Assembly (NCBI GenBank): GCA_028705495.1
Contig: JAQWDK010000010.1
Coordinates: 507 to 64,506, forward strand
Length of the DNA stretch: 64,000 nucleotides
Source of the DNA: Eubacteriales bacterium
GTDB taxonomy: Bacteria; Bacillota; Clostridia; Oscillospirales; CAG-382
Reading direction: 5' to 3'
The translations under genes were made by a program, and so were the position numbers. Below the pieces are notes generated by a model. The model searched no databases. It saw only the letters and a list, made by a program, of their open reading frames with translations, and was not told the DNA's origin. Positions 3,182 through 57,391 of this stretch are shown here, in pieces (position 1 is the stretch's first letter; each line of letters opens with the position of its first letter).

Positions 3182-4684
3182 TTAATCTACAGGCCTCATA
3201 GTGGGGAAGAGAAGTACATCTCGAATGGACTGGCTATTCGTCAACAGCATTACGAGACGATCCATGCCAATACCGAGACCACCTGTAGGAGGCATACCGT
3301 ACTCAAGTGCGGTAAGAAAGTCCTCATCCACATCACATGCTTCGTCGTCGCCCTTAGCTTTGAGAGTAGCTTGAGCTTCAAATCTTTCTCTTTGGTCGAT
3401 TGGGTCGTTAAGCTCTGAAAATGCGTTTGCGTGTTCTCTGCCGAGGATGAAGAGTTCAAAGCGTTCAGTCAACTCAGGATGCTCAGGTGAACGTTTTGCA
3501 AGAGGCGATATTTCAACAGGATGGAAAGTAACGAATGTTGGTTGGATTAACTTTTCTTCTGCATAATGTTCAAAAAACAGATTAAGAATATCGCCAATAC
3601 CATGTCTTTGTTCGTATTTTATATTGCGTGAATCAGCAACAGCACGAGCCTGTTCGAGAGTCTTAATCTCAGTGAAATCAACACCAGCATACTGTTTAAC
3701 TGCATCAGTCATTTTAAGCCTTTCGAAAGGCTTGTCAATGTCAATTATAGTTTCACCATATGGTATTTGTCCAGAACCTACGACAGCTTTAGCAAGATAC
3801 TTGATAAGACTTTCTGTAATCTCCATCATACCTTCAAAGTCGGTGTAAGCTTGATAAAGTTCAAGGAGCGTGAATTCGGGGTTATGGCGCGGTGACATAC
3901 CCTCATTCCTAAAAACTCTTCCAATTTCATAAACTTTATCAAAACCACCAACAATCAACCTCTTGAGATGCAGCTCAAGTGCGATGCGGAGGTACAAATC
4001 GATATCAAGTGTATTGTGGTGCGTTATGAAAGGTCTTGCGTTAGCTCCGCCTGCTTGTGAATGAAGAACAGGTGTCTCAACCTCCAGAAAACCACGTGCA
4101 TCAAGGAATTTGCGAGTTTCGGATATTATTTTTGAGCGCTTGACAAAAGCATCTCGGACCTCTGGGTTTACTATCAAGTCGAGATAACGTTTACGGTAAC
4201 GAGTGTCTGTATCTTTTAGGCCATGCCATTTTTCAGGAAGGGGAAGAAGAGCTTTTGATAGAAGCACAACTTCTTTGGCATGAACAGATATTTCACCTCG
4301 TCTTGTGCGGAAGACAAAACCTGATATACCGACTATATCTCCGATATCATAGGTTTTAAAACTTTCGAAGCTTTCTTCTCCGATATCGTCGATACGAACA
4401 TACACTTGCAATCTACCAGAAAAGTCTGAAATATCAATGAAATTCGCTTTTCCCATATCTCTGCGCGACATGATTCTTCCGGCGATTTTTACGTCGGTAT
4501 TCTCAAGAGTATCAAATCTATCTTTTATATCTGAAACGTAAGTATCCCTGTCAAACTTCGTTATAATAAAAGGGTCATGTCCTTCACTCTTTAAGGCAGC
4601 AAGTTTTGCACGCCTTATCTCAAGCTCATTTTGCAGAGATTGTTGCTCATTAGCCTCAGTATTGTTGTTAAGGCTGTCACTCAT
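3182..4684 (-). CDS. lysS: Lysine--tRNA ligase, class II
   Basis: OB-fold N-terminal domain and class II motifs (FLEVETPVLH, RIALELHLKRLIVGGFDKVYEIGRVFRNEG, GGLGIGMDRLVM). Confidence 0.95.
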   Translation of the reverse strand: MSDSLNNNTEANEQQSLQNELEIRRAKLAALKSEGHDPFIITKFDRDTYVSDIKDRFDTLENTDVKIAGRIMSRRDMGKANFIDISDFSGRLQVYVRIDDIGEESFESFKTYDIGDIVGISGFVFRTRRGEISVHAKEVVLLSKALLPLPEKWHGLKDTDTRYRKRYLDLIVNPEVRDAFVKRSKIISETRKFLDARGFLEVETPVLHSQAGGANARPFITHHNTLDIDLYLRIALELHLKRLIVGGFDKVYEIGRVFRNEGMSPRHNPEFTLLELYQAYTDFEGMMEITESLIKYLAKAVVGSGQIPYGETIIDIDKPFERLKMTDAVKQYAGVDFTEIKTLEQARAVADSRNIKYEQRHGIGDILNLFFEHYAEEKLIQPTFVTFHPVEISPLAKRSPEHPELTERFELFILGREHANAFSELNDPIDQRERFEAQATLKAKGDDEACDVDEDFLTALEYGMPPTGGLGIGMDRLVMLLTNSQSIRDVLLFPTMRPVD

Positions 4685-5339: not shown

Positions 5340-6560
5340 TTATGCTTGATTTGAGATTCTTTCTGTGATTTCTCTAAGAGCTTCTTGAAATTGAATGTCC
5401 TCTTCACGAGTCAATTTGTTGAAGTTCTGCATCATCTCATCCGTCATCTGAATCTTAATAGACGGTTCTACACCAATACCGTGATAATTTTCGCCTTTTG
5501 GAGGGTTATACAGGTTTGTTGTAAGGATGAGCATGGAGCCGTCGCTTAGCGGATAAACAGTCTGCATGCATCCTTTACCGAAGGTTTTTTCACCAATAAG
5601 AGCGGCCATTTCATAATCGCGAAGAGCTGAACAGAAAAGCTCGCCACCTGAGGCTGTATTACGGTTTATTAGAACAACCATCGGAAGGTCGGTAAACCTT
5701 GCATCGGAATCAAGCGACTGAATAACCTCGTTCTCTTTGTTTATGATATGGACTATCGGTCCTTTTGGAAGTAGTGGATCAAGAATATTGCAGACACTCT
5801 CAAGATTGCCACCGGGGTTATTACGGACATCGAATATAATTCCCTTAGCTCCGTCGTTTTTTGCCTTATTTAGATGAGTCACAAACTGTTCATCTGTGTT
5901 ATCATTGAATTCGGCAATCTTTATATATGCTATATCGTTATCAAGCATTTCGTATGTCACGCTTTCAACGACAAACTTCTCGCGAGTGATTGAAATGATT
6001 TCTTCTTTTTTGTAATCGGGAAAACGGGCAATTGTGAGCGAAACTTGTGTACCGGGTTCACCGGGCACTGAGTAAATGGCAACATTGTAGTTTGTGTTGT
6101 TTACGGCAAGGTCCCCGACTTTTATTATTAAATCACCGGGTAATAATCCGGCTTTTTCAGCAGGTGAGTTTGGCATTACTCCGGAAATATAAATTGCACT
6201 GTGTTCCGTATCAAAAGAAGCGTAAATACCGATTCCGGATATTTCACCGCTACTGGACTGGTTTTGCATATTTGCTTCTTCCGGCGTGAGATAATAACTA
6301 AACTGGTCGTTAAGTCCCGCGACATATCCTTTCATTATCATCTCTTCGAGTGTAGAATTATCTATGTCAAAAAAGAACTTGTCTTTAACTTGACTATCTA
6401 TATCCGAAAGCTTTTTCAAAAAAGCCTTTTCATAATAGAACTCCCTTTGCTGTTCGGTGTAATAATTACCCACATAGACCGAAGTCAATAAAAAGGTGAG
6501 GACTGTGAAAATAATCGCCACAAATATTAGCGAGCCTACGCCGAATTTATTTTTAGCCAT
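5340..6560 (-). CDS. ctpA: S41 family C-terminal processing peptidase
   Basis: N-terminal TM, PDZ segment (PAEKAGLLPGDLIIKV), S41 core (FDVRNNPGG, NRNTASGGE, TFGKG). Confidence 0.88.
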   Translation of the reverse strand: MAKNKFGVGSLIFVAIIFTVLTFLLTSVYVGNYYTEQQREFYYEKAFLKKLSDIDSQVKDKFFFDIDNSTLEEMIMKGYVAGLNDQFSYYLTPEEANMQNQSSSGEISGIGIYASFDTEHSAIYISGVMPNSPAEKAGLLPGDLIIKVGDLAVNNTNYNVAIYSVPGEPGTQVSLTIARFPDYKKEEIISITREKFVVESVTYEMLDNDIAYIKIAEFNDNTDEQFVTHLNKAKNDGAKGIIFDVRNNPGGNLESVCNILDPLLPKGPIVHIINKENEVIQSLDSDARFTDLPMVVLINRNTASGGELFCSALRDYEMAALIGEKTFGKGCMQTVYPLSDGSMLILTTNLYNPPKGENYHGIGVEPSIKIQMTDEMMQNFNKLTREEDIQFQEALREITERISNQA

Positions 6561-46596: not shown

Positions 46597-46678
46597 AATG
46601 ACGGCTCCGCAAAAAGGAGCGCGGAGGTAAAATAGGAAAGGCAAACGGAGTTAACATCTCCGGTGTTTGGGAGAAAAG

Positions 46679-47596
46679 ATGAATAGCCAGGCAGTTAAAA
46701 AAAATAATAATATGACGGAGCTGACAGATAAATTTATCAGCTACTTGTGCGACGTAAAAAAATCCTCCCAAAACACCCTTGACGCTTACAGAAGGGATCT
46801 TGGATCATTTTTGAAGTACGCTGAACGAGAATTTATAAACAGTTTCAGTGATGTCACCGTGGAGTCAGTAGAGGGGTACAAGCAGTACTTGACACAAAAA
46901 GGTCTATCCTCATCTTCGACAAGCCGCTCTTTGTCTGCCCTTAGAAGTCTGTTTCAATATTTAATTATGGAATCTATAGCCGACAGTAATCCGGCACGTG
47001 AAATACCAAATGACAAATACGAAAAAAAGGGACCACAGGTTCTGACAAATAAAGAAATTGAGATTCTTTTATCCCAACCTTCTCTTGATGATACAAAAGG
47101 CATCAGAGATAAAGCAATGTTGGAAGTTTTGTATGCAACAGGTATAAAAGTTTCCGAGCTTATTTCACTTGATGTAGATGATGTGAACCTTAATATGTCC
47201 TTTATTCGCTGCGCTAAAAACGACCGTGAAAGATTTATACCTATGTATCCAATTGCGGTAAAATCCTTATCAAACTATCTCGAGTCATCAAGAAAACTTT
47301 TAATAGTTAATAAAGACGAAAAGGCACTTTTTGTCAATATATCAGGCGATAGAATGACAAGACAAGGCTTTTGGAAAATCCTCAATATTTATGCAAAGCA
47401 AGCGAAAATATACAAACAAATAACCCCTCACTCTCTAAGACATTCCTTTGCCGCTCATCTTCTTGAAAACGGCGCCGATATACATGATATTCAAGAAATT
47501 CTTGGACATTCCGATATATCTTCAACCCAAAGATATGCTCAATTTTTAAAGGATAGAATGAAAAATAGCTATATGAAATTCCATCCACGCGCATAA
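46679..47596 (+). CDS. xerD: Tyrosine recombinase XerD/XerC
   Basis: N-terminal SAM-like domain (FISYL...SQNTLDAYRRDL). Catalytic region HSLRHSFAAHLLENGADIHDIQEILGHSDISSTQRY. Confidence 0.88.
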   Translation: MNSQAVKKNNNMTELTDKFISYLCDVKKSSQNTLDAYRRDLGSFLKYAEREFINSFSDVTVESVEGYKQYLTQKGLSSSSTSRSLSALRSLFQYLIMESIADSNPAREIPNDKYEKKGPQVLTNKEIEILLSQPSLDDTKGIRDKAMLEVLYATGIKVSELISLDVDDVNLNMSFIRCAKNDRERFIPMYPIAVKSLSNYLESSRKLLIVNKDEKALFVNISGDRMTRQGFWKILNIYAKQAKIYKQITPHSLRHSFAAHLLENGADIHDIQEILGHSDISSTQRYAQFLKDRMKNSYMKFHPRA

Positions 47597-48736: not shown

Positions 48737-49678
48737 ATGATCAGTAAAGCACTTGAAACCTTTGCAGAAGATATCGGCTTAAAGATTGAAAACGACTGCG
48801 CTTATGGCGACTACAAAGGATATATGATAACACTGTCCGAAAAGGGTAACAAAAGAAATGTTTTCATAAACTACTATCTGATGGACAGCGAAAGCGATGC
48901 TTTGAAAAAGTTCCGCCTTTCAGAGAGTGTTAAAAGTGATATGTCAAAATTCGGTATCAAGGAATTTGATATCGACGACAACGGTCTTTCAGCTGAGTTG
49001 ATTGATACAATTTCTAAACTTTCTGAATACCTTGACATCCTTATCGAAAAGCTTAATGATGAAGATATTGTCGGACATTCAAATTGTTCCGAATGCGGAA
49101 AGCATAATAACAGCGACACTAAATACAAAACAGTTTCACTTAACCAAAACAGGTATGTGCTCTGCGATTCTTGTACCTTGAATCTAATACAGAATTCGAG
49201 TAAAATGGAGGCGGAAAAGAAAGCAGAAGATACAAGCGGAAGCCTCGTGCTTGGCATACTTGGTAGCGTTATCGGGTTGCTTGTTGGAACAGCTATATGG
49301 GGTTTTATTGCAAGCTTAGGTATCATAACAATGTGGATGGGCTTTGCTCTTGCTCTTCTTATTTATATAGGTTATGTGCTGTTCAAAGGCAAAAAAGGAA
49401 AAACCCGTATTATAGTTATCAGCGCAGTAAGTTTGGTCGGTGTTATTTTAAACTCAATGTCCTCTGAAGTTATAAAAGTCTTTAAGCTTACTGAGACGGT
49501 TTTAGATAAATTTTTAATTTCACCTATATCACATATCCAAGTAGCAATGGAACATGAAAAATATGATTTTACAATAACATTTATAATAGCTTTGCTATGT
49601 GCAGCGTTTGCAATCATAATTTTTGCGACAGATATTCTCAAAGATAAACCAAAGCCTGAAACAATAAAGATCGATTAA
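48737..49678 (+). CDS. Hypothetical membrane protein: N-terminal soluble domain, CxxC..CxxC zinc-ribbon, 4 C-terminal TMs
   Basis: CSECGK...CDSC, followed by hydrophobic segments. RBS GGAGAG. Confidence 0.5.
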   Translation: MISKALETFAEDIGLKIENDCAYGDYKGYMITLSEKGNKRNVFINYYLMDSESDALKKFRLSESVKSDMSKFGIKEFDIDDNGLSAELIDTISKLSEYLDILIEKLNDEDIVGHSNCSECGKHNNSDTKYKTVSLNQNRYVLCDSCTLNLIQNSSKMEAEKKAEDTSGSLVLGILGSVIGLLVGTAIWGFIASLGIITMWMGFALALLIYIGYVLFKGKKGKTRIIVISAVSLVGVILNSMSSEVIKVFKLTETVLDKFLISPISHIQVAMEHEKYDFTITFIIALLCAAFAIIIFATDILKDKPKPETIKID

Positions 49679-49694
49679 TAAAATTAAATATATA

Positions 49695-49956
49695 AAGGCT
49701 ATGACGAAGACGGAGTGTAAAACTGCTTTCAGAGAGCCGTCGCTAGGTGCGAGACGGCAGTAGTATACATAAACCTATCACTTCCGAGCCGGAAGACTGA
49801 ATAATTCTTTGTTGAAAACCAAAGAAAAACAGTAAGTTTTCCCGTATGCCGCGTTAAGGTAAAGGCTTTTTAGCCTAAGAGTGGCGCATTGCGCAATTTG
49901 AGTGGTACCGCGGATAAAAACTCCGTCTCAAGAAATTTGAGACGGAGTTTATTTTT
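49695..49956 (+). promoter_or_regulatory. T-box riboswitch leader, probable Ile (AUC) specifier
   Basis: K-turn/stem I base GGCUAUGACGAAG ... CUUCCGAGCC. AG bulge AGAGAG (49731). Distal loop GGUGCGAGA. Specifier AUC-A (49777-49780) immediately 5' of CUUC. F-box-like GCGUUA. T-box AAUUUGAGUGGUACCGCGG (49896-49914). Terminator aaactccgtctcaa / ttgagacggagttt plus a T-run (49918-49956). Confidence 0.9.
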
Positions 49957-50013
49957 GAAATAAAAAACAATAAAAATCATATAATTATTTATAATCCGAA
50001 AGGGAAGAAGCAT

Positions 50014-52314
50014 ATGGAACAAAAAATCAAAGATATTGCAAGACGAATCAGAGAACTGCGTGAGATACTTGGGATTTCAGCTGCAGAGATGTCTGAAGTC
50101 ACATCAGTAAGCGTAGACGAATACAAAGCGCTTGAAAACGGGGAAACAGATTTTTCTTTTACTTTTATCTACAAATGCGCGAAAAAATTTGGAGTTGAAG
50201 TTACAGATTTACTTTCTGGTATCAGCCCTACGCTTTCATCATATTCCGTTGTTAGAAAAGGTGAAGGTACACCGCTTGCTCGTAGGAAGGGTTTTTCCTA
50301 CCAGTCGATTGCACCGCTTTTCAGAAAAAAGCTTGCTGAACCTTTTCTTGTTAAAGCACCGTACAACGAAGCAGAACAAGATAAACAGATTAAACTCAGC
50401 ACCCACAAGGGACAGGAGTTTGATATCGTTGTTTCTGGAAGTTTAAAGGTTTGTATTGATGGAAACATCGAAATACTAAACGAAGGTGACACAATTTATT
50501 ATGATAGTGCAACTCCGCACGGCATGATAGCAGTTGGCGGAAAAGAGTGCGTGTTTTATGCTATTGTTATTAACGCTGATAGCAGTGATTACAAACAACT
50601 TGAAGAGCCGGACGCTACTGAGTTCGCAAAACCGTCTGAACATCACACATTAACGGGTGCTGTTTACGAAAAGTTCGTCGATTTTACTCTTGATGATAAC
50701 GGTGTACTGAAAGACATACAATTTAAAAATACCGATACTTTTAACTTCGGCTTTGATGTTCTTGATGTTCTCGCTGAAAAAACGCCGATTAAAGTTGCTA
50801 TGTTGCATATCTCAAACGATATGACAGAAAGACGCTTTACTTTTGCTGAAATAAAAAAGTACAGCAACATGACTGCAAACTATTTCAAGTCGCTTGGAAT
50901 TGGTAAGGGCGATAAGGTTATGCTTGTATTAAAACGCCATTATCAGTTCTGGTTTTCAATCCTCGCTCTTCACAAACTTGGCGCAGTAGCAATACCTGCA
51001 ACAAACCAGCTTGTAAAGAAAGATTTTGAATATCGCTTCAACGCAGCTGAAGTCAGTGCGGTTATTTGTACAGCAGACGGTGATACAGCGCATCAAATAG
51101 ATCTTTCACTCGATGAATCTCCGACCCTAAAAACCAGAGTTATCGCTGGAGGTAAAAGAGAAGGTTGGAACAGTTTTGACGAGCAGCTTGATTGTTTTTC
51201 TGATAAATTCGATCGTCCGGCGGATGCAGCATGTGGTGAAGACCTAATGCTTATGTTTTTCACAAGCGGCACAACGGGCTATCCGAAGATTGCAAAGCAC
51301 AGCCACACTTACCCCTTAGGTCACTTTATTACCTCTGAATTTTGGCATAATGTAGACCCTGACGGCATTCACTTCACAATTTCCGACACAGGCTGGGGTA
51401 AAGCACTTTGGGGTAAACTCTACGGTCAGTGGCTAAGTGAAGGCGCTGTCTTTGTTTATGACTTTGACAAATTTATCGCTCATGATATCCTATCGATGTT
51501 TAAGAAGTATAATATTACAACCTTCTGCGCACCGCCTACAATGTATAGGTTTTTTATAAAAGAAGACCTTTCAAAATACGATCTCTCAAGCTTAAAATAT
51601 GCTACTACTGCAGGTGAAGCACTTAATCCGGAAGTATTCAATCAATTCAAAAAAGCTACTGGTCATGTCATAATGGAAGGCTTCGGTCAAACAGAAACAA
51701 CCCTGACAATCTGCAACCTTGTCGGTACTACACCACGTATCGGTTCTATGGGTAGACCTAGCCCGATGTACGATGTCGACCTAGTGGATGCAAACGATAA
51801 AACTGTAGCTCTCGGTGAAACAGGTGAAATTGTAATAAGAACCGATAAAAGCAAACCTTGCGGTCTCTTCCTCGGTTATTATAAAGACGAAGAGAAAACC
51901 AAAGAAGCTTGGCATGATGATGTTTATCACACAGGAGACACTGCTTGGCGTGATGAAGATGGTTATCTCTGGTATGTCGGTAGAACTGATGATTTAATTA
52001 AATCTTCGGGTTATCGAATCGGGCCTTTTGAAATTGAAAATGTCATTATGGAACTGCCTTATGTCCTTGAGTGTGCTATAACAGGGGTGCCCGATGAAAT
52101 CAGAGGTCAAGTAGTTAAAGCCACAATAGTTCTGACAAGAGGAACAGAAGCATCAGAAGAATTAAAGAAAGAAATACAAGAATATGTCAAACACAACACT
52201 GCACCGTACAAATACCCTCGTATTGTTGAATTCGTAAGTGAATTACCTAAGACAATAAGCGGTAAAATACGCCGTGTTGAACTTCGTGAAAAGCACGAAA
52301 AAACATCCGGATAA
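50014..52314 (+). CDS. Fusion protein: XRE-type HTH + cupin + AMP-forming medium-chain acyl-CoA synthetase (ACSM/MacS-like)
   Basis: HTH IRELREILGISAAEMSEVTSVSVDEYKALENGE. Cupin GDTIYYDSATPHG. AMP-binding FFTSGTTGYPK, YHTGDTAWRDEDGYLWYVGRTDDLIKSSGYRIGPFEIE, PKTISGKIRR. Confidence 0.85.
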   Translation: MEQKIKDIARRIRELREILGISAAEMSEVTSVSVDEYKALENGETDFSFTFIYKCAKKFGVEVTDLLSGISPTLSSYSVVRKGEGTPLARRKGFSYQSIAPLFRKKLAEPFLVKAPYNEAEQDKQIKLSTHKGQEFDIVVSGSLKVCIDGNIEILNEGDTIYYDSATPHGMIAVGGKECVFYAIVINADSSDYKQLEEPDATEFAKPSEHHTLTGAVYEKFVDFTLDDNGVLKDIQFKNTDTFNFGFDVLDVLAEKTPIKVAMLHISNDMTERRFTFAEIKKYSNMTANYFKSLGIGKGDKVMLVLKRHYQFWFSILALHKLGAVAIPATNQLVKKDFEYRFNAAEVSAVICTADGDTAHQIDLSLDESPTLKTRVIAGGKREGWNSFDEQLDCFSDKFDRPADAACGEDLMLMFFTSGTTGYPKIAKHSHTYPLGHFITSEFWHNVDPDGIHFTISDTGWGKALWGKLYGQWLSEGAVFVYDFDKFIAHDILSMFKKYNITTFCAPPTMYRFFIKEDLSKYDLSSLKYATTAGEALNPEVFNQFKKATGHVIMEGFGQTETTLTICNLVGTTPRIGSMGRPSPMYDVDLVDANDKTVALGETGEIVIRTDKSKPCGLFLGYYKDEEKTKEAWHDDVYHTGDTAWRDEDGYLWYVGRTDDLIKSSGYRIGPFEIENVIMELPYVLECAITGVPDEIRGQVVKATIVLTRGTEASEELKKEIQEYVKHNTAPYKYPRIVEFVSELPKTISGKIRRVELREKHEKTSG

Positions 52315-52315
52315 C

Positions 52316-52358
52316 AAAAAGAAGGTCCCCAACTTATCAAAAGTTGGGGACCGATTTA
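52316..52358. terminator. Bidirectional rho-independent terminator
   Basis: ggtccccaactt / aagttggggacc, a 12-bp perfect stem, with an A-run 5'. Confidence 0.8.
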
Positions 52359-52359
52359 A

Positions 52360-54096
52360 TTATTTACCACGCTTTATATAGTGGGTATGTAGAATGTCAT
52401 GGGCCTTATGGCTTCCGGGATTACCGAGGAATTCTTCGTAAATCTCTATAACCTGAGGGTTTTCATGAGATTTTCTTATGCCAAGGTTTTTATCAGCATT
52501 GTAAAGAACAGCGGCTCTAAGTTCCTTCAAAGGTACATAATTTCTAACATATGAAGGTTGAGTAGGCTGTCCACCGCCGTTAACGCAACCGCCGGGACAT
52601 GCCATAATTTCGATAAAATGAAATTCCTCTTCACCGCTTTTTACAAGGTCAAGAAGCTCTGCAGCATTTGATGTACCACTGGCTACAGCAACCTTCAGCT
52701 CAAGGTCACCAATGCGATATGTAGCTTTTTTCACACCCTCAACACCACGTACCTCTGTAAAATCAACTGCTTCAAGGGGTTTATTAAGTATTGCTTCTGC
52801 AGCTGTTCTAAGTGCTGCTTCCATAACGCCGCCTGTTGCTCCAAAGATCGCTCCGGCACCCGAACCGAGCTGGAAGGGATTATCAAAATCTTCATCCGGT
52901 AAGCTGTTAAATGAAATTCCGCTACGTTCAATCATCTTGCCAAGTTCTCTTGTTGTTATAGCATAATCAACATCATAAACACCTGCAGCAGATTGACCGT
53001 CGCGTTTAACTTCAAATTTCTTTGCTGTGCAAGGAATAACTGAGACGAATATAATATCCTCAGGATTCCAGCCCATCTTCTGCGCATAATATGTCTTAGC
53101 AATTGCTCCAAACATCTGCTGAGGAGATTTACAGCTTGAAAGATTTTCAACGAATTCAGGATAATAGTGTTCGCAGAACTTTATCCAACCAGGTGAGCAG
53201 GATGTAATGAGTGGGAGTTTGCCACCGTTTTGAATGCGTTCGATAAGTTCATGAGCTTCTTCGAGAATAGTAAGGTCTGCTGTCAGGTTCATATTAAAGA
53301 CACCTTCAAAACCTATTCTTCTTAGAGCTGCAACCATTTTACCTTCAACATCCGTTCCGGGTTCATTACCAAAACACTCACCAAGCGTCGCTCTGACTGA
53401 AGGTGCTGTACAAACGAGAGCATGTTTGGACTTGTCGGCAATAGCCTCCAGGACTTCGTCTGTCTGATCCCTCTCTGATAAAGCACCGGTAGGACATACA
53501 ACAATACATTGACCGCAAAGGATGCAGGGTGAATCGGAAAGGTCCTTTTCAAAAGCACAGCCGATATGTGTATCGAAACCACGGTCGTTTGCACCGATAA
53601 CGCCAACATTCTGTGTTACTTTACAAGCGGCAACACAGCGGCGGCAGAGTATACATTTATTATTATCACGAACGATAGACAGAGTTGATTCGTCTTTACT
53701 AAATTCATTGGTCTTACCCTTGAAATAGTTTTCGTCCGTAACACCGTATTCAACACAGTATTTTTGAAGTTCACAGCTCTTATTTCTTACGCAGCTAAGG
53801 CATGACTTATCATGATCCGAGAGTATCAATTCAAGATTAAGCTTTCTTGCGCGTCTGACCTGAGGAGTGTTGGTGAATATCTCCATGCCTTCATTTACCG
53901 GAGCGACACAAGATGCGACCATTGACCTTGCACCCTTTACCTCCACAAGGCAAAGACGACAAGCGCCTATTGCGTTTATGTCTTTGAGATAACATAGTGT
54001 CGGTATATGAATCGAAGCTGCTTTACAAGCGTCAAGGATGGTTGCATTCTTTGGAACTGAATAGGCGACACCGTTTATCTTTAAATTTACATTCAT
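52360..54096 (-). CDS. hydA: [FeFe]-hydrogenase catalytic subunit (HydA/HndD type, multimeric NAD(P)-linked group)
   Basis: N-terminal 2Fe-2S (CYLKDINAIGACRLC), His-ligated and 2x[4Fe-4S] domains. H-cluster motifs TSCSPGW (L1 variant), IPCTAKKFE (L2), EIMACPGGCVNGGGQP (L3). Confidence 0.92.
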   Translation of the reverse strand: MNVNLKINGVAYSVPKNATILDACKAASIHIPTLCYLKDINAIGACRLCLVEVKGARSMVASCVAPVNEGMEIFTNTPQVRRARKLNLELILSDHDKSCLSCVRNKSCELQKYCVEYGVTDENYFKGKTNEFSKDESTLSIVRDNNKCILCRRCVAACKVTQNVGVIGANDRGFDTHIGCAFEKDLSDSPCILCGQCIVVCPTGALSERDQTDEVLEAIADKSKHALVCTAPSVRATLGECFGNEPGTDVEGKMVAALRRIGFEGVFNMNLTADLTILEEAHELIERIQNGGKLPLITSCSPGWIKFCEHYYPEFVENLSSCKSPQQMFGAIAKTYYAQKMGWNPEDIIFVSVIPCTAKKFEVKRDGQSAAGVYDVDYAITTRELGKMIERSGISFNSLPDEDFDNPFQLGSGAGAIFGATGGVMEAALRTAAEAILNKPLEAVDFTEVRGVEGVKKATYRIGDLELKVAVASGTSNAAELLDLVKSGEEEFHFIEIMACPGGCVNGGGQPTQPSYVRNYVPLKELRAAVLYNADKNLGIRKSHENPQVIEIYEEFLGNPGSHKAHDILHTHYIKRGK

Positions 54097-54114
54097 AGCT
54101 TTTTTTGCCTTTCG

Positions 54115-55911
54115 TTATTTTCTGATTATGGCGTTGAATTTACACTTGGTAACACAGACACCGCACTTAATACATTTTACCTTATCGATAATATGCACCT
54201 GTTTGACTTCGCCGCTGATAGCATTAACGGGGCATGCTCTCTTGCAAGCAGTACAACCCTTGCAGTTTTCGGGTACCACTTCGTAGGAGACGAGGTTTTT
54301 ACAAACACCTGCAGGACATCTCTTTTCAACAACATGAGCGATATATTCATCTCTGAAATAGCGGAGTGTGGAAAGAATCGGGTTTGGAGATGTTTGACCA
54401 AGTCCGCAAAGAGATGTTGCTCTAATATGATGAGCAAGCTCTTCAAGTTTATCTAAATCCTCGAGTGTGCCGTTGCCGTTAGTTATCTTTTCGAGTATCT
54501 CGAGCATACGCCTTGTTCCTATACGGCAAGGAGTACATTTACCGCATGACTCATCTACAGTAAATTCAAGGAAGAATTTTGCGATGTCAACCATACAGTT
54601 GTCTTCATCAAGAACAATAAGACCGCCGCTTCCCATCATTGATCCGATTGCCAAAAGATTATCGTAATCAATAGGGGTATCGATATTCGAAGCAGGTATA
54701 CAGCCGCCAGAGGGTCCACCGGTTTGTGCTGCTTTAAACTTTTTACCATTAGGAACACCACCGCCGATTTCCTCAACGATTTCTCTAAGTGTTGTTCCCA
54801 TAGGAATTTCAACAAGTCCTGTGTGTGTAATTTTACCGCCAAGAGCGAATACCTTTGTACCTTTAGATTTTTCTGTTCCCATAGAGGCGAACCATGAAGC
54901 ACCTTTGAGGATTATTTGAGGTATGTTAGCGTATGTTTCAACGTTATTTATAATCGTTGGTTGACCGAAAAGTCCTTTAACAGCGGGGAAGGGAGGACGG
55001 GGTCTTGGTTCACCTCTATTACCTTCGATTGAGGTCAGAAGTGCTGTTTCCTCACCGCAGACAAATGCCCCGGCACCAAAGCGGAGCTGTATATCAAAAT
55101 TAAAACCAGAAGAGAAAATATCTTCACCGAGAAGGCCCATCTCTCTCGCCTGAGCAATTGCAATTGTAAGGCGTTTGATTGCAATCGGGTATTCGGCTCT
55201 TACATATATGTAACCTTCATCAGCACCGATTGCGTATCCTGCAATAGCCATAGCTTCAATTACTGCATGGGGGTCACCTTCAAGTATCGACCTGTCCATG
55301 AAAGCTCCCGGGTCGCCTTCATCTGCATTACAAACGACATACTTTTTATCAGAAACACTTTTAACAGCAAAATCCCATTTCATGCCTGTGGGGAACCCAC
55401 CGCCGCCTCTGCCACGAAGACCGCTGTCTTTCATTACCTGAATGACTTGGGCAGGTGACATTTCAGTAAGAACCTTACCAAGTGCCATGTAGCCGTCCAT
55501 GCCTATGTATTCTTCGATTGACTCAGGGTTAATATAACCGCAATTTCTGAGTGCAACACGTTTTTGCTTCTTGTAGAAAACAGTATCGTTGAGTGAAACA
55601 TGTGTTCCGTCGTCAACTTCTTCAACGGTATCATTGTAAACGAGTCTTTTAACGATCCTACCTTTGAGAAGATGCTCCTCCACAATTTCAGAAAGGTCGC
55701 TTACAGTAACACGGCTATAAAATGTTCCGTCAGGATAAACTATTATAATCGGTCCAAGAGCGCACAAGCCGAAACAGCCTGTCATAACAATTTTTATTTC
55801 GTCTTCCAGTCCTTTCGCCTTGAGCTCAAGTGCCAGGGCATCTTTTATAGCAAGGCTTCCGGACGATGTGCAGCCTGTACCGCCGCAAATCAGAATATGT
55901 GAGCGTATCAT
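54115..55911 (-). CDS. hydB: NuoF-like flavoprotein subunit of the hydrogenase (HydB/HndC), with an N-terminal Trx-like 2Fe-2S domain and C-terminal 2x[4Fe-4S]
   Basis: GRGGGGFPTG (FMN/NAD site), ESCGKCTPCR, C-terminal CKGCTACKRACP / CIKCGVCVTKC. The start is either ATG 55911 or TTG 55935. Confidence 0.92.
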   Translation of the reverse strand: MIRSHILICGGTGCTSSGSLAIKDALALELKAKGLEDEIKIVMTGCFGLCALGPIIIVYPDGTFYSRVTVSDLSEIVEEHLLKGRIVKRLVYNDTVEEVDDGTHVSLNDTVFYKKQKRVALRNCGYINPESIEEYIGMDGYMALGKVLTEMSPAQVIQVMKDSGLRGRGGGGFPTGMKWDFAVKSVSDKKYVVCNADEGDPGAFMDRSILEGDPHAVIEAMAIAGYAIGADEGYIYVRAEYPIAIKRLTIAIAQAREMGLLGEDIFSSGFNFDIQLRFGAGAFVCGEETALLTSIEGNRGEPRPRPPFPAVKGLFGQPTIINNVETYANIPQIILKGASWFASMGTEKSKGTKVFALGGKITHTGLVEIPMGTTLREIVEEIGGGVPNGKKFKAAQTGGPSGGCIPASNIDTPIDYDNLLAIGSMMGSGGLIVLDEDNCMVDIAKFFLEFTVDESCGKCTPCRIGTRRMLEILEKITNGNGTLEDLDKLEELAHHIRATSLCGLGQTSPNPILSTLRYFRDEYIAHVVEKRCPAGVCKNLVSYEVVPENCKGCTACKRACPVNAISGEVKQVHIIDKVKCIKCGVCVTKCKFNAIIRK

Positions 55912-55936
55912 AGACTTTTTGTATACTCCAATCAAA

Positions 55937-56305
55937 TTATTTTACTTCGCCGATTGTAAACTCTTTGACGGGTTTACCGCCTTTTATATGCTCTTCGACG
56001 ATTCGTGCGACTTTATCAGCAGTCATTTTTACATATGTAACCTTGTCTTTACCTTTTTCAAATACCTCAACAACGGGTTCGTATTGACAGATTCCAATGC
56101 ATCCCGTTTGAGTTACAGAAACAGTTCCTGAAAGTCCACTTTCGTTGATGGCGCTAACAAAGGTATTGAGTACCGGACGTGCTCCTGCAGCTATTCCGCA
56201 GGTCGCCATTCCGACAACTATCCTTTTGTCGCCTAATCCTTCTCGAAGTGCGACTTTTTCTTTCATTCTATCTCGTATTTCCACAAGTTCAGCCAATGTT
56301 TTCAT
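55937..56305 (-). CDS. Thioredoxin-like [2Fe-2S] ferredoxin subunit (HndB-like)
   Basis: 122 aa with the cysteine pattern MATCGIAAGA ... QTGCIGICQYEP. Confidence 0.8.
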   Translation of the reverse strand: MKTLAELVEIRDRMKEKVALREGLGDKRIVVGMATCGIAAGARPVLNTFVSAINESGLSGTVSVTQTGCIGICQYEPVVEVFEKGKDKVTYVKMTADKVARIVEEHIKGGKPVKEFTIGEVK

Positions 56306-56326
56306 TAGTTTTGTCCTTTCGATTTA

Positions 56327-56878
56327 TTACAAAGTGCTATACTGTTCAGTAAGATAGTCTTTAATCCATTCTAAAACCTCAGGAGTGTTCAGTGGAACAT
56401 CACCTAGCACTTGACGCATTTCTTTCGTCTCAAGCTTTAATGAGCCTGTCGGTGAAGAATGGTGAAAATAGAAGTCAATGTTTGGGTTTGTATGTATTAA
56501 AAGACTTAATGTTGAAATTATATCTCCGATAGGAGGAAAATCGATATGTCTTGAGTTGAAGTCAGCTGTTACTTCTGTCCCGTGGTCATCGATGTATTGT
56601 TCTTGATCCCGAGAATTAATTACCACCCGACCACCTGTTTGCTCAGCAGCCATAATTAGATAAGGAACACCTAAGCCGACCTTTCTCGTTGTTCTGGAAG
56701 TGTAAAACGGTTTTTTAACCTGGTTAAGTGTTTCTTCATCCATGCCGCAACCGTCGTCGGTAACTTTCATCTGTAGCATACCGTTATCATACTCGGTAAT
56801 TGATATTCCGATGTTTTTCGCGCCAGCGGTTATTGAGTTCTGGACGATGTCAAGTATGTATAAAGACAGCTCTTTCAT
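56327..56878 (-). CDS. Stand-alone GHKL/HATPase_c ATP-binding protein encoded inside the hydrogenase operon (HydD-like)
   Basis: N-box LDIVQNSITAGA, G1 DDGCGM, G2 GLGVP. No DHp/His or receiver domain. Confidence 0.8.
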   Translation of the reverse strand: MKELSLYILDIVQNSITAGAKNIGISITEYDNGMLQMKVTDDGCGMDEETLNQVKKPFYTSRTTRKVGLGVPYLIMAAEQTGGRVVINSRDQEQYIDDHGTEVTADFNSRHIDFPPIGDIISTLSLLIHTNPNIDFYFHHSSPTGSLKLETKEMRQVLGDVPLNTPEVLEWIKDYLTEQYSTL

Positions 56879-56893
56879 AATAACCGGATTCTC

Positions 56894-57391
56894 TTAAATA
56901 GTATATTTAGAGAGAATTCCCGCTACATCATCTTTAGTCAATCTACCATAAACATCATCATTAACAGTGAGGACTGGAGCAAGTCCACAGGCTCCAATGC
57001 AGCGTGTCGCCTCGATGGAATATTTGCCGTCAGCACTCGAACCTCCTTGAGGAATACCGAGAATCTCAGAAATTTTGTTTAATATCTCGCCACTTCCTTT
57101 AACATAACAAGCCGTTCCCAAGCAAACAGAAATTGCATATTTACCTTTGGGGTTGAGAGAGAACTGAGAATAGAACGAAACTATTCCATAAATCTCCTCA
57201 AGAGGTATACCTGTCTCATCGGACACGATTCTCTGGACTTCGATAGGCAGATAGCCATATATTTCTTGGGCTTCCTGCAGTATCGGCATCGTAGAGCCTT
57301 TGATATCTTTGTACTTCTCAATAACTTTTAGGAGCTTTAACTCCTGTTCTTTGGTGCCGTTAAACACGACTGTCGTGAGCTTTTTTTTCAT
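56894..57391 (-). CDS. hydC: NuoE-like [2Fe-2S] subunit of the hydrogenase (HydC/HndA)
   Basis: ISVCLGTACYVKG ... RCIGACGLAP cysteine pattern. 165 aa. Confidence 0.9.
   Translation of the reverse strand: MKKKLTTVVFNGTKEQELKLLKVIEKYKDIKGSTMPILQEAQEIYGYLPIEVQRIVSDETGIPLEEIYGIVSFYSQFSLNPKGKYAISVCLGTACYVKGSGEILNKISEILGIPQGGSSADGKYSIEATRCIGACGLAPVLTVNDDVYGRLTKDDVAGILSKYTI

Follow-up and report, generated by a model that had tools for sequence, protein, structure and literature searches.

An isoleucine-specifying T-box leader upstream of an HTH-cupin-acyl-CoA synthetase fusion gene in a clostridial genome: a probable switch for 2-methylbutyrate salvage

We analysed a stretch of 64,000 nucleotides (nt), here called the window, from a Eubacteriales bacterium (GenBank assembly GCA_028705495.1, contig JAQWDK010000010.1, positions 507 to 64,506 of the forward strand). 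It contains a T-box leader followed by a gene for a 766-residue protein in which an XRE-type helix-turn-helix (HTH), a cupin and an AMP-forming acyl-coenzyme A (CoA) synthetase are fused (Table 1). The leader matches the Rfam covariance model RF00230 over the entire model (positions 1–219) with 105.1 bits (E 3.7e-22). This is above the gathering score of 93 bits, and the leader is the sole T-box in the window. A sequence-only reading of the same DNA had described a complete leader with K-turn, AGAGAG bulge, distal loop, GCGUUA, T-box and terminator, an AUC specifier and a UGGU bulge in the antiterminator. Each of these elements is present in its place, and both the covariance-model search and the folding of terminator against antiterminator bear the description out.

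Table 1. Features of the leader and the fusion gene (window coordinates)
Feature	Position	Strand	Basis or remark
Candidate sigma-70 promoter CTGAAA-17-TAAAAT, weak, uncertain	49656..49684	+	9/12 consensus positions
T-box leader (Stem I, Stem II, IIA/B region, Stem III, antiterminator)	49692..49933	+	RF00230
K-turn, UGA facing CUUC-C-GAGC	49702..49704 and 49781..49789	+	sequence reading
AG bay AGAGAG, Stem I	49731..49736	+	aligned to model AGAGA
Stem I distal loop GGUGCGAGA, tRNA-elbow platform	49746..49754	+	aligned to model UUGGUGaaA
Specifier AUC (Ile), then A at 49780	49777..49779	+	codon position in RF00230 alignment
F-box-like GCGUUA	49851..49856	+	aligned to model CGUUA
T-box sequence AAUUUGAGUGGUACCGCGG	49895..49913	+	sequence reading, RF00230 alignment
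Antiterminator helix UUGAG / 7-nt bulge / GCGGA ... UCCGU CUCAA	49898..49931	+	folding, Rfam consensus structure
Bulge UGGU, predicted partner of tRNA 3' end NCCA, N = A73	49903..49906	+	
Intrinsic terminator, perfect 14-bp stem (49918-49950), 5-nt loop, T-run	49918..49956	+	folding
Ribosome-binding site AAGGGAAG	50000..50007	+	sequence reading
766-residue fusion of XRE-HTH, cupin and MacS-type acyl-CoA synthetase	50014..52314	+	open reading frame, Pfam
XRE-type HTH, residues 10-70	50041..50223	+	HTH_19 36.4 bits, HTH_3 34 bits
Cupin_2, residues 125-184	50386..50565	+	44.3 bits
AMP-forming synthetase, AMP-binding residues 254-623, AMP-binding_C residues 673-751	50773..52266	+	Pfam
Bidirectional terminator hairpin, ends ligase gene and convergent hydrogenase operon	52324..52352	both	12-bp stem, 7 G-C pairs

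The terminator has a folding energy of -21.6 kcal/mol (z = -7.2), which none of 200 shuffled sequences equals. When its 3' arm is omitted, the RNA folds instead into an antiterminator composed of UUGAG, a 7-nt bulge with UGGU, GCGGA, a loop and UCCGUCUCAA. The two structures are mutually exclusive because both use UCCGUCUCAA, as the 5' arm of the terminator or as the 3' strand of the antiterminator. The leader is of the transcription-attenuating type and an ordinary member of the RF00230 family. The UGGU bulge implies a tRNA with an A73 discriminator, and A73 is the discriminator of bacterial tRNA-Ile. A tRNA-Ile gene, from which position 73 could be read, was found neither in the 64-kb window, where tRNA-Thr(CGU) is the only tRNA gene, nor in 60 related loci. 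The candidate promoter overlaps the 3' end of the upstream open reading frame (ORF; stop at 49678), and transcription of the leader may occur by read-through from that gene. At the equivalent place, related loci carry a strong TTGACA-17-TATAAT promoter.

Relatives of the locus were collected by scanning one genome per GTDB species. At least 594 stretches encode homologues of the downstream protein, and the best 80 species-level loci of these were compared (individual loci are given L numbers). The T-box core AGTGGTACCGCG lies 90–280 nt upstream of the orthologue in 66 of the 80; in two, the sequence ends too near the gene to judge whether a T-box is present. The genes flanking the orthologue are not conserved among these loci, so the leader travels with the gene and not with a neighbourhood. 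The carriers are rumen and gut Clostridia and include the cultured organisms Neglectibacter timonensis, Hydrogenoanaerobacterium saccharovorans and [Clostridium] cellulosi.

The specifier could be assigned from the window and its relatives together. In the covariance-model alignment, AUC occupies the codon position and is followed by A and then by the CUUC closing helix; the same alignment sets AUC at this position in L072 and L083, as does alignment by eye in L081. Among 64 leaders with a full Stem I, ATC is in register in 62 by pattern and in one more by eye, and GTA is found in one. The base 3' of ATC is A in 41 cases, C in 19, G in three and U in one. When 60 Stem I sequences are aligned with MAFFT, ATC is invariant and the preceding base is variable. 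Because the bases flanking ATC vary, the overlapping frames CUA, UAU, UCA and CAC are excluded. The AG bay is AGAGAG in all 60 sequences, and five of the six pairs of the helix beneath the distal loop show compensatory changes. RNAalifold returned only the distal helices for these 60 sequences, so the basal helices were drawn by hand and evaluated by pair counts. In the resulting structure 96.2% of the cells are paired, with compensatory changes in 15 of the 19 pairs; of 500 shuffles none does as well, and slid-partner controls give 28–47%. Both helices bounding the specifier loop covary (in nine sequences, for instance, GAAG/CUUC is replaced by GAGG/CCUC). We conclude that the specifier is AUC, the codon read by tRNA-Ile(GAU).

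The fusion gene is monocistronic. The neighbouring genes beyond its 3' end are on the opposite strand, and the hairpin that follows it is bidirectional, in agreement with the earlier statement that this gene is the only one downstream of the leader. Related loci use GAAAGGAG as the ribosome-binding site, at the same distance from the start codon. All domains of the fusion exceed their Pfam cut-offs, the synthetase with 204 bits for AMP-binding and 79 bits for AMP-binding_C. We considered whether two separate genes had been joined into this ORF as an artefact of assembly or of a frameshift. More than 120 protein clusters of about 760 residues, mostly from metagenome-assembled genomes of Oscillospiraceae and other Clostridia, have the same architecture and length at 65–97% identity; the artefact is thereby ruled out and the fusion is real. 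The AF2 model of the protein has a predicted local distance difference test score of 77.7, with a low-confidence linker at residues 189–207.

The ligase part of the protein most resembles enzymes that act on short branched-chain acids. Against the PDB it matches MacS of Methanosarcina acetivorans (3ETC) with 676.8 bits (E 2e-202) and 54% identity over 525 residues, and in Foldseek the AlphaFold model aligns to 3ETC with a TM-score of 0.88. The best NCBIfam model is MbcS (NF047394) at 454.4 bits; as the equivalog cut-off is 850 bits, the protein falls outside the MbcS equivalog by the NCBI criterion. These matches uphold the ACSM/MacS-type assignment made in the sequence-only reading. Residue invariance was judged in an alignment of 23 homologues, in which the core motifs TSGTTGxPK, YHTGD and PKTxSGKIxR (with the catalytic Lys) do not vary. 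In the substrate pocket, W466 corresponds to MacS Trp259 (chain index 282), and FGQTE aligns to FGQTE of MacS, where Gly replaces the pocket Trp416 of Acs; both are invariant in the family. The CBAL-like CoA site is also kept, with SGYR, PDEIRGQ and APYKYPR matching MacS residue for residue. The equivalents of MacS Gly459/Tyr460, Arg490 (R697), Tyr525/Tyr527 (Y732/Y734) and Lys519 (K726) are conserved and family-invariant, and every MacS residue probed by mutagenesis is retained in the fusion ligase.

MacS prefers 2-methylbutyrate and completes the CoA-ligation step with that substrate only; with propionate the adenylate is formed and then released or broken down, and no CoA ester appears (PMC10455477). 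MbcS of Staphylococcus aureus has a Km below 10 uM for 2-methylbutyrate and isobutyrate, uses isovalerate poorly and has no activity on acetate, the substrates tested being branched acids. It feeds 2-methylbutyrate and isobutyrate into FabH-initiated fatty acid synthesis (PMC10026030). The fusion ligase is most likely a MacS/MbcS-type short branched-chain acyl-CoA synthetase that acts on 2-methylbutyrate.

Paralogues of the fusion gene at related loci suggest a connection of the ligase to amino acid synthesis. In seven loci (L037, L046, L048, L049, L055, L063 and L072) the fusion is present in tandem, copy 1 behind an AUC T-box and copy 2 behind a GUA (Val) T-box with a separate promoter. Rfam finds both leaders of L072, and the covariance-model alignment sets GUA in the codon position of the second. 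Downstream of the Val copy of L072, and in its orientation, lie ORFs for a P-loop protein, a 68-residue ferredoxin-like subunit and alpha, beta and gamma subunits. The alpha subunit scores 545.8 bits against NF005507 (VorB; cut-off 399 bits), the model for a branched-chain 2-oxoacid:ferredoxin oxidoreductase (VOR). L037 has ORFs of equal sizes and order after its Val copy, and according to neighbour clustering six to seven loci have the P-loop and alpha genes downstream. The Val copy and VOR form a predicted enzyme pair for converting isobutyrate to 2-oxoisovalerate under a Val-starvation switch. A Val T-box paralogue followed by VOR is what a pathway from branched acid through acyl-CoA and 2-oxoacid to amino acid predicts, and by parity the Ile-switched copy should activate 2-methylbutyrate. 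Across the fusion family the specifiers are Ile and Val and none is Leu, which parallels the substrate pair of MbcS.

The two kinds of copy can also be compared residue by residue. Between the Val copies and their sister Ile copies, the sole difference in the ligase is G462A, four residues before the pocket W466. The Ile enzyme would therefore have the roomier pocket, which fits C5 versus C4 substrates and not C3. In a strict comparison of the Val copies to all Ile copies, no discriminating residue is left in the ligase; only K54R and F111L separate them, both in the N-terminal part.

The HTH-cupin part and the ligase also occur as separate proteins. Two cultured organisms, [Clostridium] cellulosi and Hydrogenoanaerobacterium saccharovorans, have a gene for a 190-residue HTH-cupin protein next to a gene for a ligase of 551–557 residues, and the split form is preceded by a T-box that scores about 110 bits in Rfam and has the specifier AUC. 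Leader, HTH-cupin part and ligase are thus associated independently of the fusion.

Further T-boxes were seen close to related loci. In [Clostridium] cellulosi (L081:11230-12579, minus strand), a second T-box of 113.7 bits with the specifier GUC (Val) stands before an Aminotran_4 (IlvE-like) gene; the distance to the Ile-T-box HTH-cupin/ligase operon is about 5 kb. At several loci (L033:1400-5700, L050, L054, L074-L077, L030 and, on the minus strand, L049), a LeuA-like gene (HMGL and LeuA_dimer, about 462 residues) lies behind a CUC (Leu) T-box. The next gene encodes an 825-residue fusion of a xylose-isomerase-like TIM barrel and an AMP-binding ligase resembling FadD and feruloyl-CoA synthetase. 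The Ile-T-box gene comes directly after this pair.

In the rumen, 2-methylbutyrate is converted to Ile and isobutyrate to Val by reductive carboxylation (PMC7356843, citing the Allison papers). We consider it likely that the tRNA-Ile T-box in the window turns on a MacS/MbcS-type ligase for the salvage of 2-methylbutyrate to Ile by this route. Salvage of Ile was also the interpretation put forward in the sequence-only reading, and comparative support for it comes from the conservation of the T-box in 66 of 80 loci, the invariant AUC and the Val paralogue with its VOR genes. The mechanism would operate as follows. When tRNA-Ile is charged, the 14-bp terminator would form and transcription would halt before the gene. 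During Ile starvation, the anticodon GAU of uncharged tRNA-Ile would pair with AUC and its elbow would rest on the distal platform; the free NCCA end would pair with the UGGU bulge, stabilising the antiterminator and allowing RNA polymerase to read into the ligase gene. The ligase would then convert external 2-methylbutyrate, ATP and CoA to 2-methylbutyryl-CoA. A VOR-type oxidoreductase encoded elsewhere in the genome would produce 2-oxo-3-methylvalerate from the acyl-CoA, CO2 and reduced ferredoxin, and transamination would yield isoleucine. The steps of the RNA switch rest on family membership and structure, and the enzymatic steps on homology and the related loci; what the ligase acts on, which way the flux runs and what the HTH-cupin part does are inferences.

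Several observations weigh against this interpretation. In tblastn searches of the 64-kb window, no match was found to VOR subunits, the P-loop protein or an ilvE-like aminotransferase. As VOR, ilvE and tRNA-Ile genes are all missing from the window, the remaining steps of the pathway are an assumption for this organism. The substrate is deduced from 54% identity and a handful of residues, with an MbcS score under the cut-off. The promoter in the window is weak, and about 30% of orthologous leaders have a pyrimidine, not the usual purine, directly 3' of the specifier. No universal partner gene is conserved across the 80 loci, only clade-specific ones. Finally, a 'Ruminococcus sp.' clade has the same fusion without a T-box, which shows that members of the family can do without T-box control. 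The loci of this clade are L011, L020, L022, L027, L031, L032, L045, L058, L061 and L062. This clade has a consensus sigma-70 promoter about 150 nt upstream, a short leader and a conserved ATGTAAGCA just past the -10 box.

The acyl-CoA product could have another destination. Anteiso fatty acids start from 2-methylbutyryl-CoA, normally supplied by Ile catabolism, and the ligase might provide anteiso or branched fatty-acid primers and not Ile, with Ile shortage triggering the salvage of 2-methylbutyrate for lipids as MbcS salvages it in S. aureus. Such a role would suit the best NCBIfam match, MbcS, with its documented part in FabH-initiated fatty acid synthesis, and rumen Ruminococcus species use branched acids for both lipids and amino acids. 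However, T-boxes sense tRNA charging, which reports translational demand, and linked fab genes are absent from all 80 loci. In both loci examined downstream, VOR genes come after the Val-T-box paralogue. An oxidative VOR expressed in Val starvation would destroy the Val precursor and duplicate the ligase product, which makes lipid supply unlikely as the selected function; with VOR running reductively, the ligase and VOR act in series. We therefore regard lipid supply as an improbable primary role. Supply of anteiso primers is possible as a side benefit of salvage to Ile.

Compared with the ligase, the N-terminal module is less defined. Its 205 residues give only weak matches to XRE and cupin structures in the PDB, the HTH resembling DdrO and the 434 repressor and the cupin matching the HTH-cupin regulator 1Y9Q with E about 2e-3. 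Foldseek with the full-length model returned ligase structures only and none for the N-terminal module. Many HTH residues are invariant among homologues and the module is under purifying selection; stand-alone HTH-cupin homologues of 190 residues share 57–61% identity with it. In the cupin, H131, E135 and H169 (window 50404-50520) are invariant in the 23 homologues, and the usual second His of motif 1 is Gly. The three residues resemble a 2-His-1-carboxylate triad and could form a site for a metal and a 2-oxoacid.

The module also carries most of the divergence between Ile and Val copies. Seventeen of the 18 positions that separate the Val copies from their sister Ile copies fall in residues 1–216. 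In control pairs of clades, 39–71% of the discriminating positions are in the N-terminal part, so the enrichment is real but modest. Between Ile and Val paralogues, identity is 47% in the N-terminal parts and 73% in the ligase parts. This pattern suggests that the HTH-cupin part reads something that differs between the Ile and Val branches, or that it diverged against cross-talk.

A candidate nucleic acid partner of the HTH was observed at other loci. In 24 of them (L024, e.g. 5650-6000; L026, L033, L050, L070 and 19 others), a conserved inverted repeat brackets the whole leader. One arm, ATTTGAATATCACAAA, is between the -10 box and Stem I, and the other, TTTGTTTTATTCAAA, is directly past the terminator T-run, 270–281 nt apart. 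Each arm has the symmetry TTTG-N7-CAAA, and variants retain G-U pairing; in L014 and L065 the 3' arm differs and is likewise complementary to the 5' arm. The repeat could act in the RNA, as a long-range helix that closes the leader, or in the DNA, as a pair of operators for the fused HTH. In the window leader (49640-50020) the repeat is absent and only A/T-rich chance matches occur; no operator is evident in the window.

The HTH-cupin part is probably a ligand-responsive DNA-binding unit, serving as a second input to the gene or controlling other genes of the route, and the second, ligand-dependent layer of control proposed in the sequence-only reading is plausible. More specifically, and only tentatively, the module may sense one branched-chain compound (the acid, the 2-oxoacid through the His-Glu-His site, or the enzyme's own acyl-adenylate) in the manner of BirA, making a two-input gate together with the T-box. 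In such a gate the riboswitch would report demand, as uncharged tRNA-Ile, and the protein would report supply, as 2-methylbutyrate; the Ile and Val duplicates would have diverged mainly in the sensor, avoiding cross-talk.

The same features could be taken further, to a protein that is mainly a transcription factor. The ligase domain would then be the sensor or the maker of an acyl-adenylate corepressor, as in BirA, and the T-box would set the level of the regulator. The strongly conserved HTH, its resemblance to true DNA-binding XRE proteins, the separate 190-residue form in some species, the 17 of 18 Val-versus-sister-Ile positions in the HTH-cupin part and the TTTG-N7-CAAA repeat around the leader in 24 loci all point in this direction. 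However, the catalytic and CoA-binding residues of the ligase are all invariant, which argues for a working enzyme, and the ligase of the split form is a normal stand-alone enzyme. The repeat is missing from the window, and its G-U-preserving variants fit an RNA helix as well. A predominantly regulatory protein thus seems to us quite improbable; a regulatory role would add to the enzymatic role and not replace it. Activation of propionate by the Ile-type enzyme, with reductive carboxylation of propionyl-CoA to 2-oxobutyrate and the ordinary ilv pathway thereafter, would draw on the adenylate that MacS makes with propionate, on a known anaerobic route (reductive carboxylation of propionate) and on the sense of Ile-specific control over an intermediate specific to the Ile branch, but it is very unlikely, as MacS fails to finish the CoA ester with propionate and completes it with 2-methylbutyrate only, MbcS is inactive on acetate and was tested on branched substrates, G462A would leave the Ile enzyme with the larger pocket, the opposite of what a C3 acid would lead one to expect, and the Val-specific paralogue is left unexplained.

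The surroundings of the gene in the window are as follows. A HydABC-type [FeFe] hydrogenase cluster (52360-57391, minus strand) converges on the ligase gene and encodes a HydA-like protein of 578 residues, a NuoF-like protein of 606 residues, a small HATPase protein and a NuoE-like protein of 165 residues; this neighbourhood is not conserved at related loci. About 2 kb upstream of the leader is a tyrosine recombinase gene (46667-47596; Phage_integrase with a SAM-like N-terminal domain, XerC/D-like), with proC on one side and two genes for membrane proteins on the other. A class II aminoacyl-tRNA synthetase gene of the Asp/Lys/Asn type (3182-4684, minus strand), adjoining greA, is without a T-box.

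For decades it has been known that anaerobes of the rumen and gut make Val, Ile and Leu from branched-chain volatile fatty acids. In the literature searched, the clostridial genes that activate branched acids, and their control, were not assigned. A T-box ties a gene to an amino acid; the pairing of one ligase with Ile and of its paralogue with Val would give a testable assignment of this pathway at the level of genes. Such an assignment is relevant to the feeding of branched-chain volatile fatty acids to ruminants, to cross-feeding in the gut and to the annotation of apparent amino-acid auxotrophies in metagenome-assembled genomes. The T-box and RNA-regulon surveys consulted make no mention of a CoA ligase or a ferredoxin oxidoreductase as a T-box target. 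The literature searched ties no T-box to an acyl-CoA synthetase, VOR or branched-acid assimilation, an earlier mention being possible.

The proposed route can be compared with known systems part by part. Reductive carboxylation in the rumen, as described by Allison and co-workers, uses VOR-type enzymes, and related loci pair the Val-T-box ligase with a four-subunit VorB-type oxidoreductase; the classical evidence is physiological, and in the window the oxidoreductase is not linked to the ligase. MacS (3ETC) is like the fusion ligase in the pocket Trp259, the Gly that replaces Trp416 of Acs, and Tyr460, Arg490, Tyr525 and Tyr527. It differs in being archaeal, without an N-terminal HTH-cupin and without a preceding T-box; to our knowledge, archaea lack T-boxes. 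The substrate pair of S. aureus MbcS, 2-methylbutyrate and isobutyrate, matches the Ile and Val specifiers with no Leu, but MbcS is a single-domain monomer that serves fatty-acid synthesis and has no known T-box. HTH-cupin regulators such as 1Y9Q of Vibrio cholerae have, as in the fusion, an N-terminal XRE HTH and a small cupin barrel in about 190 residues, with marginal similarity (E about 2e-3); PuuR-type proteins are a further example of such one-component regulators. BirA likewise joins an HTH to an adenylate-forming enzyme, but the resemblance is no more than an analogy, as the two catalytic domains have unrelated folds. The leader itself has the full architecture of canonical T-boxes such as those of Bacillus subtilis ileS, tyrS and glyQS, with the UGGN bulge and the competing terminator and antiterminator. 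Canonical leaders usually have a purine after the codon, whereas about 30% of the orthologous leaders have a pyrimidine. Canonical T-boxes normally control aminoacyl-tRNA synthetases, de novo biosynthesis or transporters, and here the target is an acyl-CoA ligase joined to a DNA-binding module. It is this target that is unusual: a T-box regulon probably extended to the salvage of a fermentation acid, through a fusion of regulator and enzyme.

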